Source of the DNA: Escherichia coli
GTDB taxonomy: Bacteria; Pseudomonadota; Gammaproteobacteria; Enterobacterales; Enterobacteriaceae
NCBI RefSeq assembly: GCF_044324785.1
Contig: NZ_CP172127.1
DNA length: 64,000 nt
Reading direction: 5' to 3' (one strand)
Part shown: positions 36,388 to 55,898 of the stretch, piece by piece
How positions within the stretch are numbered: the first letter of the stretch is position 1
Layout: each line of letters opens with the position of its first letter
Translations under genes and position numbers: made by a program
Notes under the pieces: generated by a model
Databases searched by the model: none
Told to the model about the DNA's origin: nothing
The model's input: the letters and a program-made list of their open reading frames with translations, nothing else

Positions 36388-37638
36388 ATGGATATAATGA
36401 GAAGTGTTGTGGGGATGGTGGTGTTACTGGCAATAGCATTTCTGTTGTCAGTGAATAAAAAGAGCATCAGTTTGCGCACGGTTGGAGCCGCACTGCTGCT
36501 GCAAATTGCCATTGGTGGCATCATGCTCTATTTTCCGCCGGGAAAATGGGCAGTAGAACAGGCGGCATTAGGCGTTCATAAAGTGATGTCTTACAGTGAT
36601 GCCGGTAGCGCCTTCATTTTTGGTTCGCTGGTCGGGCCGAAAATGGATGTCCTCTTTGACGGTGCGGGTTTTATCTTTGCCTTTCGCGTACTCCCGGCGA
36701 TTATCTTCGTCACTGCGCTCATCAGCCTGCTGTACTACATTGGCGTGATGGGGCTGCTAATCCGCATTCTTGGCAGTATTTTTCAGAAAGCCCTCAACAT
36801 CAGCAAAATCGAATCTTTTGTTGCGGTTACTACTATTTTCCTCGGGCAAAATGAGATCCCGGCGATCGTAAAACCGTTTATCGATCGCATGAATCGCAAC
36901 GAGCTATTTACGGCAATTTGTAGCGGGATGGCGTCCATTGCCGGTTCGATGATGATTGGTTATGCCGGAATGGGCGTACCAATTGACTACCTGTTAGCGG
37001 CATCGCTGATGGCGATCCCTGGTGGTATTTTGTTTGCACGTATTCTTAGCCCAGCCACCGAGCCTTCGCAGGTGACATTTGAAAATCTGTCGTTCAGCGA
37101 AACGCCGCCAAAAAGCTTTATCGAAGCAGCGGCGAGCGGTGCGATGACCGGGTTGAAAATCGCCGCTGGTGTGGCGACGGTGGTAATGGCGTTTGTCGCA
37201 ATTATTGCGCTGATCAACGGTATTATCGGCGGAATTGGCGGCTGGTTTGGTTTTGCCAATGCCTCTCTGGAAAGTATTTTTGGCTATGTGCTGGCACCGC
37301 TGGCGTGGATCATGGGTGTGGACTGGAGTGATGCCAACCTGGCGGGTAGCCTGATTGGGCAGAAACTGGCGATTAACGAATTCGTCGCTTACCTGAGTTT
37401 CTCCCCATACCTGCAAACGGGCGGCACGCTGGAAGTGAAAACCATTGCGATTATCTCCTTTGCGCTTTGTGGTTTTGCTAACTTTGGTTCTATCGGTGTT
37501 GTCGTTGGCGCATTTTCGGCTATTTCGCCAAAACGCGCACCGGAAATCGCCCAGCTTGGTTTACGGGCGCTGGCAGCTGCCACGCTTTCCAACCTGATGA
37601 GCGCGACTATTGCCGGGTTCTTTATTGGTTTAGCTTGA
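36388..37638 (+). CDS. psuT: NupC-family (CNT) nucleoside transporter
   Basis: 416-aa polytopic membrane protein; highly similar along its length to the ORF at 39575..40825. Confidence 0.9.
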   Translation: MDIMRSVVGMVVLLAIAFLLSVNKKSISLRTVGAALLLQIAIGGIMLYFPPGKWAVEQAALGVHKVMSYSDAGSAFIFGSLVGPKMDVLFDGAGFIFAFRVLPAIIFVTALISLLYYIGVMGLLIRILGSIFQKALNISKIESFVAVTTIFLGQNEIPAIVKPFIDRMNRNELFTAICSGMASIAGSMMIGYAGMGVPIDYLLAASLMAIPGGILFARILSPATEPSQVTFENLSFSETPPKSFIEAAASGAMTGLKIAAGVATVVMAFVAIIALINGIIGGIGGWFGFANASLESIFGYVLAPLAWIMGVDWSDANLAGSLIGQKLAINEFVAYLSFSPYLQTGGTLEVKTIAIISFALCGFANFGSIGVVVGAFSAISPKRAPEIAQLGLRALAAATLSNLMSATIAGFFIGLA

Positions 37639-37705: not shown

Positions 37706-38365
37706 TTACTGCATCATCCCGGAGAATTTATTCTCCGGGTCCATCTCCAGTGCCAGTCCTGACAACTGCTTTCTGTTTTTAATTAGATACCCTTTCTTGC
37801 TTTTAATTAATAAACCGTCGTGAATGAATTGCGCGAGAACATATAAAAGATGTCGATAAGAAACGCCTAAATACTCTGCCGCTTGCGTATGCTTTTCGTG
37901 ATAAAGATCACCTTCCTGCGAGAGTAATATAAAAGCTGCCAGGCGATTCACTAATGGAAATGATTGATTCTGAGTTAAAGAAACAATATTACGATAATTT
38001 TTATGACTTAAGGTGACGCAGAGTTTTCGTAAAAATAGCGTGTCGTTTAATAACAGCGGGCGGTAATGTTTCATAGGGAGCGCAAGGCACCAACACTCTT
38101 CAATAGCCTGCACCGCACGCGGTTCATGGTCTTTGTCGATTAACTCAATCTCGCCAATAAAACAGGGGGCGGCAAAGAAATCGATCAGCGACACGCGACC
38201 ATTAGCTAGCGTGGCGTAAAGCCTGGCGCGGCCTCGCGTCAGGTAAAACAGCCAGGACGGCTGTTGCCCTTCCTGCACAATGTAGTCACGCGCTAAAAAA
38301 TGAAACAGCCGCGTATCGGCTGAAACATCCGTTGAAAAGCAATCCTTAAACGCGGATTCACTCAT
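37706..38365 (-). CDS. yeiL: CRP/FNR-family transcriptional regulator YeiL
   Basis: 219 aa from internal Met (MSESAF); N-terminal nucleotide-binding-like domain, C-terminal HTH; Cys residues. Confidence 0.8.
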
Positions 38366-38533
38366 CAATTGCTGCTTAAGATCATTATTGTGGATTTCTT
38401 TCACGATGTTTATCCGCTATGAGATTTCTCATATTTAGCATACGTACGCTGTTGTTAAGATTCAATCATCGGCCCGGTCGAATTTTCTTTGCTGTAGAAA
38501 AAATAACGCAACTGGAAACAGAGGAAATAAACA

Positions 38534-39475
38534 ATGGAAAAGAGAAAAATTATTCTGGATTGTGATCCGGGTCATGATGATGCTATTGCAATGATGATGG
38601 CAGCGAAACATCCGGCGATTGATTTATTAGGTATCACCATTGTAGCGGGTAATCAGACGCTTGATAAAACATTAATTAATGGCCTGAATGTTTGCCAGAA
38701 ACTGGAGATTAATGTTCCGGTTTATGCGGGGATGCCACAGCCCATTATGCGGCAACAAATTGTTGCCGATAATATTCACGGTGAAACCGGACTGGATGGC
38801 CCGGTATTCGAGCCGCTGACCCGCCAGGCAGAAAGCACTCATGCGGTGAAATATATCATCGATACCCTGATGGCAAGCGATGGCGATATCACTCTGGTGC
38901 CGGTTGGTCCGCTTTCAAATATCGCGGTGGCAATGCGTATGCAACCCGCGATCCTGCCCAAAATCCGTGAAATTGTGCTAATGGGCGGCGCTTACGGTAC
39001 AGGCAACTTCACCCCATCTGCCGAGTTCAACATCTTTGCCGACCCGGAAGCCGCACGCGTGGTGTTCACCTCCGGCGTTCCGTTGGTGATGATGGGCCTC
39101 GATCTCACCAACCAGACTGTTTGCACCCCGGACGTGATTGCCCGGATGGAAAGGGTAGGCGGCCCCGCCGGAGAGCTGTTCAGCGACATCATGAATTTCA
39201 CTCTAAAAACGCAGTTCGAAAACTACGGCCTGGCTGGCGGCCCGGTGCATGACGCCACCTGCATCGGTTATCTGATTAACCCTGATGGCATTAAAACCCA
39301 GGAGATGTACGTCGAAGTGGACGTTAACAGCGGCCCTTGCTACGGGCGTACGGTCTGCGACGAGCTGGGCGTTCTTGGCAAGCCCGCCAATACCAAAGTC
39401 GGCATCACTATTGATACCGACTGGTTCTGGGGATTAGTCGAAGAGTGCGTGCGCGGCTACATCAAAACCCATTAA
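38534..39475 (+). CDS. rihB: Pyrimidine-specific ribonucleoside hydrolase RihB
   Basis: 313 aa; N-terminal DxDxxxDD nucleoside-hydrolase motif (DCDPGHDD). Confidence 0.9.
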
Positions 39476-39574: not shown

Positions 39575-40825
39575 ATGGATGTCATGAGAAGTGTTCTGGG
39601 AATGGTGGTATTGCTGGCAATTGCGTTTTTGCTGTCAGTAAACAAGAAGAAGATCAGCCTGCGTACCGTTGGCGCGGCGTTAGTGTTACAGGTCGTGATT
39701 GGCGGCATTATGCTTTGGTTACCGCCAGGGCGTTGGGTCGCAGAAAAAGTCGCTTTTGGCGTGCATAAAGTGATGGCGTACAGCGACGCGGGTAGCGCAT
39801 TTATCTTTGGTTCTCTGGTCGGACCGAAAATGGACACCTTATTTGATGGCGCAGGATTTATCTTTGGCTTCAGGGTATTACCGGCAATTATCTTCGTTAC
39901 AGCACTGGTGAGTATTCTCTACTACATCGGTGTGATGGGGATCTTAATTCGAATTCTCGGCGGTATATTCCAGAAAGCATTGAATATCAGCAAGATCGAG
40001 TCATTCGTCGCGGTTACTACCATTTTCCTCGGGCAAAACGAAATTCCGGCAATCGTCAAACCCTTTATCGATCGTCTGAATCGCAATGAATTATTTACAG
40101 CGATTTGTAGTGGCATGGCCTCGATTGCTGGTTCGACAATGATTGGTTATGCCGCTCTGGGCGTGCCTGTGGAATATCTGCTGGCGGCATCGTTAATGGC
40201 GATCCCCGGCGGGATCTTGTTTGCCCGCCTGTTAAGCCCGGCTACCGAATCTTCGCAGGTTTCCTTTAATAACCTCTCTTTCACCGAAACACCGCCAAAA
40301 AGCATTATTGAAGCCGCCGCTACAGGGGCAATGACCGGGCTGAAAATCGCAGCAGGTGTGGCGACAGTGGTGATGGCATTTGTTGCCATCATTGCGTTGA
40401 TTAACGGAATTATCGGCGGCGTTGGCGGCTGGTTTGGTTTTGAACATGCCTCGCTGGAGTCAATTTTAGGTTATCTGTTGGCTCCACTGGCGTGGGTGAT
40501 GGGGGTTGACTGGAGTGATGCGAATCTTGCCGGGAGTTTGATTGGACAGAAACTGGCGATTAATGAATTTGTCGCTTACCTCAATTTCTCACCTTATCTG
40601 CAAACAGCTGGCACTCTGGATGCTAAAACCGTGGCGATTATTTCTTTCGCGTTGTGCGGTTTCGCTAACTTTGGTTCTATCGGGGTGGTGGTTGGCGCAT
40701 TTTCTGCGGTTGCGCCACACCGTGCACCGGAAATCGCCCAGCTTGGTTTACGCGCGCTGGCGGCGGCGACACTTTCTAACCTGATGAGTGCCACCATTGC
40801 AGGATTCTTTATTGGCTTAGCGTAG
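39575..40825 (+). CDS. nupX: NupC-family (CNT) nucleoside transporter
   Basis: 416 aa, paralog of psuT with long identical blocks. Confidence 0.9.
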   Translation: MDVMRSVLGMVVLLAIAFLLSVNKKKISLRTVGAALVLQVVIGGIMLWLPPGRWVAEKVAFGVHKVMAYSDAGSAFIFGSLVGPKMDTLFDGAGFIFGFRVLPAIIFVTALVSILYYIGVMGILIRILGGIFQKALNISKIESFVAVTTIFLGQNEIPAIVKPFIDRLNRNELFTAICSGMASIAGSTMIGYAALGVPVEYLLAASLMAIPGGILFARLLSPATESSQVSFNNLSFTETPPKSIIEAAATGAMTGLKIAAGVATVVMAFVAIIALINGIIGGVGGWFGFEHASLESILGYLLAPLAWVMGVDWSDANLAGSLIGQKLAINEFVAYLNFSPYLQTAGTLDAKTVAIISFALCGFANFGSIGVVVGAFSAVAPHRAPEIAQLGLRALAAATLSNLMSATIAGFFIGLA

Positions 40826-54377: not shown

Positions 54378-55898
54378 ATGGTCAGCTCAACGACTCCGTC
54401 TTCCGGGGAATACTTGTTGGAAATGAGCGGTATCAACAAGTCTTTTCCTGGTGTTAAGGCACTTGATAACGTTAATTTAAAAGTCCGGCCACATTCTATC
54501 CATGCATTAATGGGGGAAAACGGCGCAGGAAAATCAACATTATTAAAATGCCTGTTTGGTATTTATCAAAAAGACTCCGGCACCATTTTATTCCAGGGTA
54601 AAGAGATCGATTTCCATTCTGCCAAAGAAGCGCTGGAAAATGGTATTTCGATGGTACACCAGGAGTTAAACCTGGTATTACAACGTTCGGTGATGGATAA
54701 CATGTGGCTGGGGCGATATCCCACCAAAGGCATGTTTGTCGATCAGGACAAAATGTACCGCGAAACCAAAGCGATTTTTGATGAACTGGATATTGATATC
54801 GATCCGCGTGCGCGCGTCGGCACATTATCCGTTTCGCAAATGCAGATGATCGAAATCGCCAAAGCGTTTTCCTATAACGCGAAAATTGTGATTATGGATG
54901 AACCGACTTCTTCGTTAACCGAAAAAGAGGTCAATCATCTGTTCACTATTATTCGTAAATTAAAAGAGCGCGGCTGCGGTATTGTTTATATCTCACATAA
55001 AATGGAAGAAATCTTCCAGTTATGTGATGAAGTTACCGTATTGCGCGACGGTCAGTGGATCGCCACTGAACCGCTGGCAGGACTGACGATGGACAAGATC
55101 ATCGCCATGATGGTTGGGCGTTCTCTTAACCAGCGTTTCCCTGACAAAGAAAACAAGCCGGGCGAAGTGATTCTTGAAGTGCGTAACCTGACGTCGCTGC
55201 GCCAGCCGTCGATTCGCGATGTCTCGTTTGATCTGCATAAAGGGGAGATCCTCGGTATTGCCGGTCTGGTGGGGGCGAAACGTACCGATATTGTTGAGAC
55301 GTTATTTGGTATTCGCGAGAAATCGGCTGGCACCATTACGTTGCACGGCAAAAAGATCAATAACCATAATGCCAACGAAGCCATAAACCACGGATTTGCA
55401 CTGGTAACTGAAGAGCGCCGCTCAACGGGAATTTATGCCTATCTGGATATCGGTTTTAACTCGTTAATTTCCAATATTCGCAACTACAAAAATAAAGTTG
55501 GTTTACTGGATAACTCGCGGATGAAAAGCGATACCCAGTGGGTGATTGATTCGATGCGGGTAAAAACACCGGGGCATCGGACGCAAATTGGTTCGCTCTC
55601 CGGTGGTAATCAGCAAAAGGTGATTATTGGTCGCTGGCTACTAACGCAACCAGAAATATTAATGCTCGATGAACCGACGCGCGGTATTGATGTCGGGGCG
55701 AAGTTTGAGATCTATCAGTTAATTGCCGAACTGGCGAAGAAAGGCAAGGGGATTATTATTATCTCCTCTGAAATGCCTGAGTTGTTAGGGATAACAGACC
55801 GTATTCTGGTCATGAGCAATGGTCTTGTTTCCGGAATTGTCGATACAAAAACAACAACGCAAAACGAAATTCTGCGTCTTGCGTCTTTGCACCTTTAA
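54378..55898 (+). CDS. mglA: Galactose/methyl-galactoside ABC transporter ATPase MglA
   Basis: 506 aa; two nucleotide-binding domains with Walker [10 protein letters not shown]. Confidence 0.95.

Follow-up and report, generated by a model that had tools for sequence, protein, structure and literature searches.

The stretch of Escherichia coli DNA analysed here (64,000 nt, hereafter the window) carries a short palindrome between yeiL and rihB, two divergently transcribed genes (yeiL on the minus strand, rihB on the plus strand). The question raised by this locus is whether the palindrome is an operator and, if so, for which protein and which gene. A preliminary description of the region had proposed a site for YeiL itself or for another factor controlling rihB. 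The string that it gave, atgagatttctcat at 38419-38432, is present exactly there. The inverted repeat, described as 6-bp arms around a TT centre, is real but undersized, since one more base pairs on each side. A repeat finder returned the arms TATGAGA (38418-38424) and TCTCATA (38427-38433), which are 7 bp long, 100% complementary and separated by 2 nt. In the yeiL orientation the complete 16-bp element (hereafter the box, Table 1) reads TATGAGAAATCTCATA. In E. coli K-12 MG1655 it occupies positions 2255287-2255302, and the 220 bp around it are identical in the two sequences. Over the wider region 38200-38700, none of 5426 complete E. coli genomes exceeds 99.2% identity to the window, and the intergenic part equals that of K-12. 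The box ends 102 bp before the rihB ATG at 38534, which bears out the earlier figure of about 100 bp. The 54 bp given for the yeiL side are arithmetically correct from the K-12-style ATG at 38365, but that start is probably wrong, as discussed below.

Table 1 Coordinates of the genes, the box and the predicted promoter elements of the yeiL-rihB region in the window.
Feature	Position	Strand	Remarks
yeiL CDS, CRP/FNR family	37706..38404	-	232 aa from GTG 38404; PF00027 (cNMP_binding) and PF13545 (HTH_Crp_2)
Candidate YeiL box, TATGAGA-TT-TCTCATA	38418..38433	.	16-bp palindrome; centre 38425.5; inverted-repeat search
Predicted yeiL -10, TATGCT	38437..38442	-	position-conserved nAnnnT hexamer in 77/79 loci
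Predicted rihB extended -10, TGT-TAAGAT	38453..38461	+	predicted start ~38468; no recognisable -35
Predicted yeiL -35, TTGAAT	38460..38465	-	17 nt from -10; TTGAAT/TTGCAT at fixed offset across phyla
rihB CDS, pyrimidine ribonucleoside hydrolase (IU_nuc_hydro)	38534..39475	+	divergent presumed target
nupX (yeiJ), nucleoside transporter	39575..40825	+	99 nt after rihB

As a bare palindrome, the box is unremarkable and not beyond chance. Inverted 6-bp arms separated by 2 nt were observed 21 times in the window (15.6 expected), and 7-bp arms with the same spacing nine times (3.9 expected). When spacers of 0-10 nt are allowed, about 0.2 repeats with 7-bp arms are expected per 130 bp. Since such palindromes occur often in the window, the significance of the box had to rest on conservation. 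Candidates for further copies in the window were single-mismatch matches only, at 55706 (inside a 506-aa open reading frame) and 62938 (downstream of an open reading frame); they are no more than chance provides and were set aside.

We scanned one genome per species and obtained 80 yeiL-family loci from Enterobacterales, Enterococcus, Lactobacillaceae, Clostridia, Negativicutes and Fusobacteria. One locus is cut at a contig end, leaving 79 that could be evaluated. The sequence TATGAGA-WW-TCTCA-YA stands just upstream of yeiL, 8-91 nt before the start codon, in 79 of these 79 loci, which are not independent samples. Taxa bearing the box include Escherichia, Citrobacter, Hafnia, Pantoea, Enterococcus, Secundi-, Levi- and Furfurilactobacillus, Lachnospiraceae, Clostridium, Cohnella, Peribacillus, Pelosinus and Sebaldella. 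In an alignment anchored at the box, the information content is 1.6-2.0 bits at 14 positions and 0.1-0.5 bits in the flanks. Chance would supply only about 0.5 exact copies of the 10 specified bases in the 502 kb that the loci comprise, and the conservation of the box is far beyond this. The commonest 16-mers are the one found in the window (32 loci) and TATGAGAAATCTCACA (22 loci). The central dinucleotide varies between AA (63), TT (11), AT (3) and TA (2) while both arms are fixed, and this flipping of the centre between fixed arms is a signature of a dyad-symmetric protein-DNA site. Away from yeiL, matches with at most one mismatch number five in the 502 kb, against about 15 expected, so that each locus has one box.

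The same picture holds at closer range. Among 13 aligned intergenic regions from Enterobacterales, no long block other than the box is invariant. Across the 80-bp core, 3038 E. coli genomes have the same sequence, and in the variants examined the core-region changes fall in the promoter spacer and none in the box. In a reverse search, 120 perfect copies of the Firmicute 16-mer were taken from metagenomes; for 13 of them, a YeiL homologue starts no farther than about 150 bp away. The remaining 107 appear to be random hits with no architecture in common (69% lie in open frames of at least 100 codons, and some are organellar). No second recurrent context for the box was found among the 120 metagenome matches or in the flanks of the 80 loci.

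The loci also reveal which of the two genes the box accompanies. A divergent RihB orthologue (70-99% identical) lies upstream in 51 of them. Another 28 loci with more distant YeiL-like proteins (43-51% identity, among our loci L050-L080, for example L056, L065, L073 and L075) retain the box without a rihB partner. The partner there is in most cases a class I SAM methyltransferase of about 210 aa, and otherwise a DUF6198 membrane protein, an NT5C-type nucleotidase or a membrane protein without a Pfam domain. The box is absent upstream of the K-12 paralogues rihA and rihC, even with two mismatches allowed. Thus, the box tracks yeiL rather than rihB. Between E. coli and Firmicutes (loci L023-L049 and others), RihB is 70-78% and YeiL 50-60% identical, and the divergent layout is the same. 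The high identity of RihB across phyla suggests horizontal spread of a yeiL-rihB cassette; the bases flanking the box are randomised nonetheless. Downstream of rihB, nupX follows in 20 of 22 Enterobacterales loci and, judged by this synteny, is possibly co-regulated with it. As separate observations, the methyltransferase partner has the sequence MEQKxYWNxVSxxKEFTTPF..., and in the window the yeiL-rihB pair stands between two paralogues with 88% identity, psuT (yeiM, 36388-37638) and nupX, as if it were set within a duplicated transporter region.

The box carries the CRP/FNR-family core TGA-N6-TCA in the window and in 79/79 loci, and a gene for a regulator of that family, the yeiL-family gene, adjoins it in every evaluable locus. 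The core and the dyad geometry together would make a CRP/FNR-family protein such as YeiL the natural binder. The recognition helix of YeiL, SYRHLLYV, is identical in E. coli, Enterococcus, Levilactobacillus, Clostridium and Pelosinus, whose YeiL proteins share an overall identity of only 44-59%. It aligns with SRETVGRI of CRP and TVETISRL of FNR and differs from both. An invariant helix atypical of the family and an invariant box atypical of the family are what a dedicated regulator-operator pair should look like, and from this pairing we infer that YeiL is very probably the protein that binds the box. Comparable boxes are known in other subfamilies, namely CCTGA-N4-TCAGG for FLP of Lactobacillus casei, the dehalobox TTAAT-N4-ATTAA for CprK and GTA-N8-TAC for NtcA. 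These sites share the principle of a subfamily variant of the family dyad, often beside the regulator gene and a dedicated target operon, and TATGAGA-WW-TCTCAYA is distinct from all three. Three cysteines of YeiL (C81, C104 and C106) are invariant in the orthologue alignment. A structure search found no close solved structure for YeiL, and the protein is reportedly proteolytically unstable (PMC12974527).

The distance between the box and yeiL depends on the start codon, on which the annotations differ: RefSeq/PGAP gives 232 aa from the GTG at 38404, and NC_000913.3 gives 219 aa from the ATG at 38365. YeiL homologues down to 57% identity (Enterococcus) carry 13 extra N-terminal residues, MKEIxNxxLKQQL, whose M1 and K2 are invariant among the aligned homologues, and the orthologues place the start 39 nt farther upstream than the K-12 ATG. 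Outside Escherichia, every aligned orthologue except one has Ile or Leu in place of the K-12 initiator, Met14 in this numbering, and the codon is ATT in one Escherichia genome. By this comparison, yeiL most likely starts at the GTG and not at the K-12 ATG, and the box ends 14 nt before this conserved codon. A direct repeat, GATTTCT (copies at 38393 and 38423, 30 bp apart), was considered as a second half-site and rejected, because the second copy corresponds to codons 3-5 (K-E-I) of the extended yeiL open reading frame and is absent in Firmicutes.

The box occupies a fixed place between two predicted promoters. On the yeiL strand, the pattern TTGAAT/TTGCAT, 17 nt, TATGCT/TATACT recurs across the loci at fixed offsets from the box. 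From these consensus hexamers, the yeiL start is predicted at about 38430, at the G or A of TGAGA inside the left arm, and the box would span about +1 to +14 (roughly -3 to +13) with its centre near +5. The opposite strand of TTGAAT-TATA, that is, of the yeiL -35 and the following bases, reads TATAAT, and an nAnnnT hexamer stands at a fixed offset on that strand in 78/79 loci. This divergent -10 is TATGAT in most other Enterobacterales and TATAAT in many Firmicutes; the TGT-TAAGAT of the window is weaker than the TATGAT of Citrobacter and Buttiauxella. No -35-like hexamer accompanies it in nearly all of the 79 loci. With the divergent start placed at the usual 7-nt distance from the -10, the centre of the box lies at -42.5 in the window and in 45 of the 51 rihB loci. 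It lies at -41.5 in 26 of the 28 other loci, where the spacing to the divergent -10 is shorter by 1 bp, and one or the other value applies in 77 loci in total. A -10 without a -35 and a box near -41.5 or -42.5 constitute, as predicted here, the classic layout of a class II activator. Class II FNR promoters have a site centred near -41.5 and no -35, as the predicted divergent promoters of our loci would. The predicted rihB -10 overlaps the yeiL -35, so that the two promoters stand back to back with predicted starts about 38 bp apart and overlapping RNA polymerase footprints, and one dyad would serve them both. The transcription start table of Kim 2012 has no entry for yeiL or rihB. A promoter-prediction tool proposed a sigma-70 promoter TAAACA/AATAAT (38412/38384). 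It falls within the conserved extension of the coding sequence and would give the box a position of -48.5, so it was not adopted.

These results support the earlier proposal of a site for YeiL or another factor controlling rihB: the box occurs with yeiL-family genes in every evaluable locus, stays by yeiL when the divergent gene differs, and lies at class II distance from a conserved divergent -10. We consider that the box is quite probably the YeiL operator of a compact bidirectional switch. YeiL would bind it, probably as a dimer like other members of the family, and rihB is probably the target. On the yeiL strand, the complete promoter TTGAAT-17 nt-TATGCT would fire at about 38430, and the box would cover the first ~14 transcribed bases. 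Active YeiL at the box would serve as a class II activator that brings RNA polymerase to the rihB promoter, and would simultaneously occlude its own promoter. In loci with other cargo genes, the box-bound regulator may activate in the same class II manner. Since the predicted rihB promoter lacks a -35 and has a mediocre -10, it would need active YeiL, which would explain why rihB is silent in the laboratory. In laboratory K-12, rihB is physiologically silent yet inducible (PMC2898832).

The direction of control within this switch is less certain than the binding. Activation of rihB combined with autorepression of yeiL seems to us about evenly balanced between right and wrong, and the sign of the autoregulation is the weakest step of the model. 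The K-12 record labels YeiL a transcriptional activator, and Anjum, Green and Guest are said to have found in 2000 that a yeiL-lacZ fusion is positively autoregulated. This label and this report fit poorly with autorepression from a box at about +5. A precedent for the proposed arrangement may be crp, where, as Hanamura and Aiba reportedly described in 1991, CRP at a site downstream of the crp start switches on a divergent promoter, which in turn occludes that of crp. There, too, the site lies downstream of the regulator's own start (the one of yeiL being predicted) and upstream of a divergent promoter, and a single site could turn transcription on in one direction and off in the other. The two systems differ in that the divergent product at crp is a short antisense RNA, whereas here it is a real gene, rihB, and the predicted starts are about 38 bp apart.

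The best surviving competitor also places YeiL on the box, but as a pure repressor that blocks both promoters until a signal arrives, rihB being silent since YeiL stays bound. Steric exclusion of RNA polymerase is geometrically possible, with the box lying across the predicted yeiL start and the rihB -35 region, and the reported silence of rihB fits such a role. However, the missing -35 in nearly all loci and the locking of the box at -41.5 or -42.5 correspond to the spacing of CRP/FNR activation, which occlusion would not need, and the K-12 annotation names an activator. We therefore regard pure repression as unlikely.

It is less likely still that CRP or FNR is the main user of the palindrome in E. 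coli and imposes catabolite or oxygen control on rihB and yeiL without YeiL. The preliminary description had stated that the box matches neither the FNR nor the CRP consensus. This is correct insofar as the match to FNR is poor and that to CRP imperfect, but it passes over the family core and dyad geometry of the box. FNR sites share with the box a 5-N4-5 dyad with the TGA/TCA core at an equal distance from the centre, and FNR and YeiL belong to one family and both have conserved cysteines. Yet ATGAG-N4-CTCAT agrees with TTGAT-N4-ATCAA at only 6/10 positions, in the core only. The half-site is aTGAg and not tTGAt, the outer TA and the inner GA/TC are invariant in the box, and the recognition helices differ. 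FNR reportedly represses yeiL, again according to Anjum et al. in 2000, which would speak for FNR as a regulator of this region. A better FNR-like dyad, TTGAA-TCTT-AACAA (38452-38465 on the minus strand, 8/10 to the FNR consensus), lies next door, where it overlaps the predicted yeiL -35 and rihB -10, and it may account for the repression.

For CRP, the likeness is closer. The CRP site is likewise a 16-bp dyad with N6 spacing, and TATGA-N6-TCATA agrees with TGTGA-N6-TCACA at 8/10 positions with the correct spacing, but the G of GTGA is missing in both halves. Moreover, the box is invariant beside yeiL-like genes in Lactobacillaceae, enterococci and clostridia, which are not known to use cAMP-CRP. 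Genomic SELEX with CRP lists rihB as a new target (PMC3105977), and CRP might use the box or a nearby site. The high-resolution Footprint-seq table for CRP, on the other hand, has no rihB entry and names only an intragenic yeiL site (PMC12871828). That '(yeiL)' entry, at K-12 position 2255813, corresponds in the window to CGTGATAAAGATCACC (37897-37912). This near-consensus CRP site lies within the coding sequence of yeiL and may be what genomic SELEX assigned to rihB.

An RNA-level element appears very improbable. The conserved sequence would then act as a 5'-terminal hairpin of the yeiL mRNA, UAUGAG-AAAU-CUCAUA, that influences stability or translation, or as a tiny leader open reading frame (MRNL...) that starts at the ATG of the box. 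The predicted yeiL transcript indeed begins at or in the box, its 42-nt leader folds with a 6-bp stem there, and the box can be said to begin with ATG. However, a start at the G or A of TGAGA would cut off part of the left arm together with the ATG. The fold is weak (-5.4 kcal/mol, z = -1.5, with 14 of 200 shuffles as good), no Rfam family matched the leader, the sole match (E = 0.64) lying elsewhere, and the 79 loci contain zero compensatory changes, the arms being invariant rather than co-varying. By these measures the leader does not resemble a structured RNA. Against a leader open reading frame, every codon position is equally frozen, and sequence and length are variable after the box. The strand-symmetric flip of the centre between AA and TT fits a DNA dyad. 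Finally, a functionless chance palindrome in an AT-rich intergenic region, although repeats of this size are frequent as counted above, is hardly credible and is already refuted by near-invariance at the same place in 79/79 loci of several phyla with randomised flanks.

The YeiL operator reading can be extended, more tentatively, to a self-contained, horizontally mobile module of two genes with the box at its core. Such a module would consist of a cysteine-rich, probably redox- or Fe-S-sensing YeiL and a divergent cargo gene, and a single dimer site would toggle the overlapping promoters, turning the regulator gene off and the cargo gene on. The same box would be reused in at least three phyla for RihB, the SAM methyltransferase, the NT5C nucleotidase and membrane proteins. 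This extension is possible, but we hold it with less than even confidence. The expression of a rihB-permease-nupC cluster in Lactobacillus buchneri changes about 0.5-0.6-fold on aeration (PMC4521753), and this drop, with which the conserved cysteines in YeiL accord, hints at a module that may respond to oxygen or redox state. If the module exists as described, YeiL would be the missing activator that explains the 'cryptic' rihB, and an orphan regulator would gain its first high-confidence motif, a target and a corrected start codon.

E. coli has only three or four proteins of the CRP/FNR family, and among those named as characterised YeiL alone has essentially no known DNA motif or physiological targets. 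RegulonDB lists one YeiL site and one target, yeiL itself (PMC9308461). The searchable literature that mentions YeiL gives no motif, no EMSA, footprint or ChIP result for the box and no link to rihB, and a search with the box sequence returned no bacterial context, only unrelated eukaryotic primers. In our comparative analysis, the box seems to be a new or newly substantiated subfamily-specific operator of the CRP/FNR type for a known class of regulator, and the E. coli site is perhaps the one curated in RegulonDB. Its conservation across phyla, the fixed class II geometry, the link to rihB and the correction of the start codon appear to be new. Conserved from E. coli to clostridia at about 2 bits per position, the box is a testable motif for genome-wide regulon searches. 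It offers a concrete candidate target, rihB and possibly nupX, and, for this textbook 'silent' gene, the hypothesis that crypticity reflects a -35-less promoter dependent on active YeiL. The locus also exemplifies a regulator-operator-cargo cassette common to Gram-negative and Gram-positive bacteria.

Three further features of the rihB side were observed. In E. coli EC23HZZ201 (locus L085), an IS1A element abuts the rihB promoter at a junction equivalent to about 38441. The yeiL side, including the box and yeiL, is replaced up to fruA and the rihB -10 is kept, so that this strain carries a natural rihB promoter without the box or the regulator. Right after the predicted rihB start, at 38469-38491 on the plus strand, a terminator-like hairpin, TCGGCCCGGTCGA, is followed by ATTTTCTTTG. 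This hairpin is not conserved in other Enterobacterales, and 0.4 such structures are expected per region; it could add to the silence of rihB in E. coli or be due to chance. In the rihB leader, Enterobacterales genera share the conserved block ATAACG(C/T)AAC (38506-38515, plus strand), which is part of neither the box nor the ribosome-binding site.
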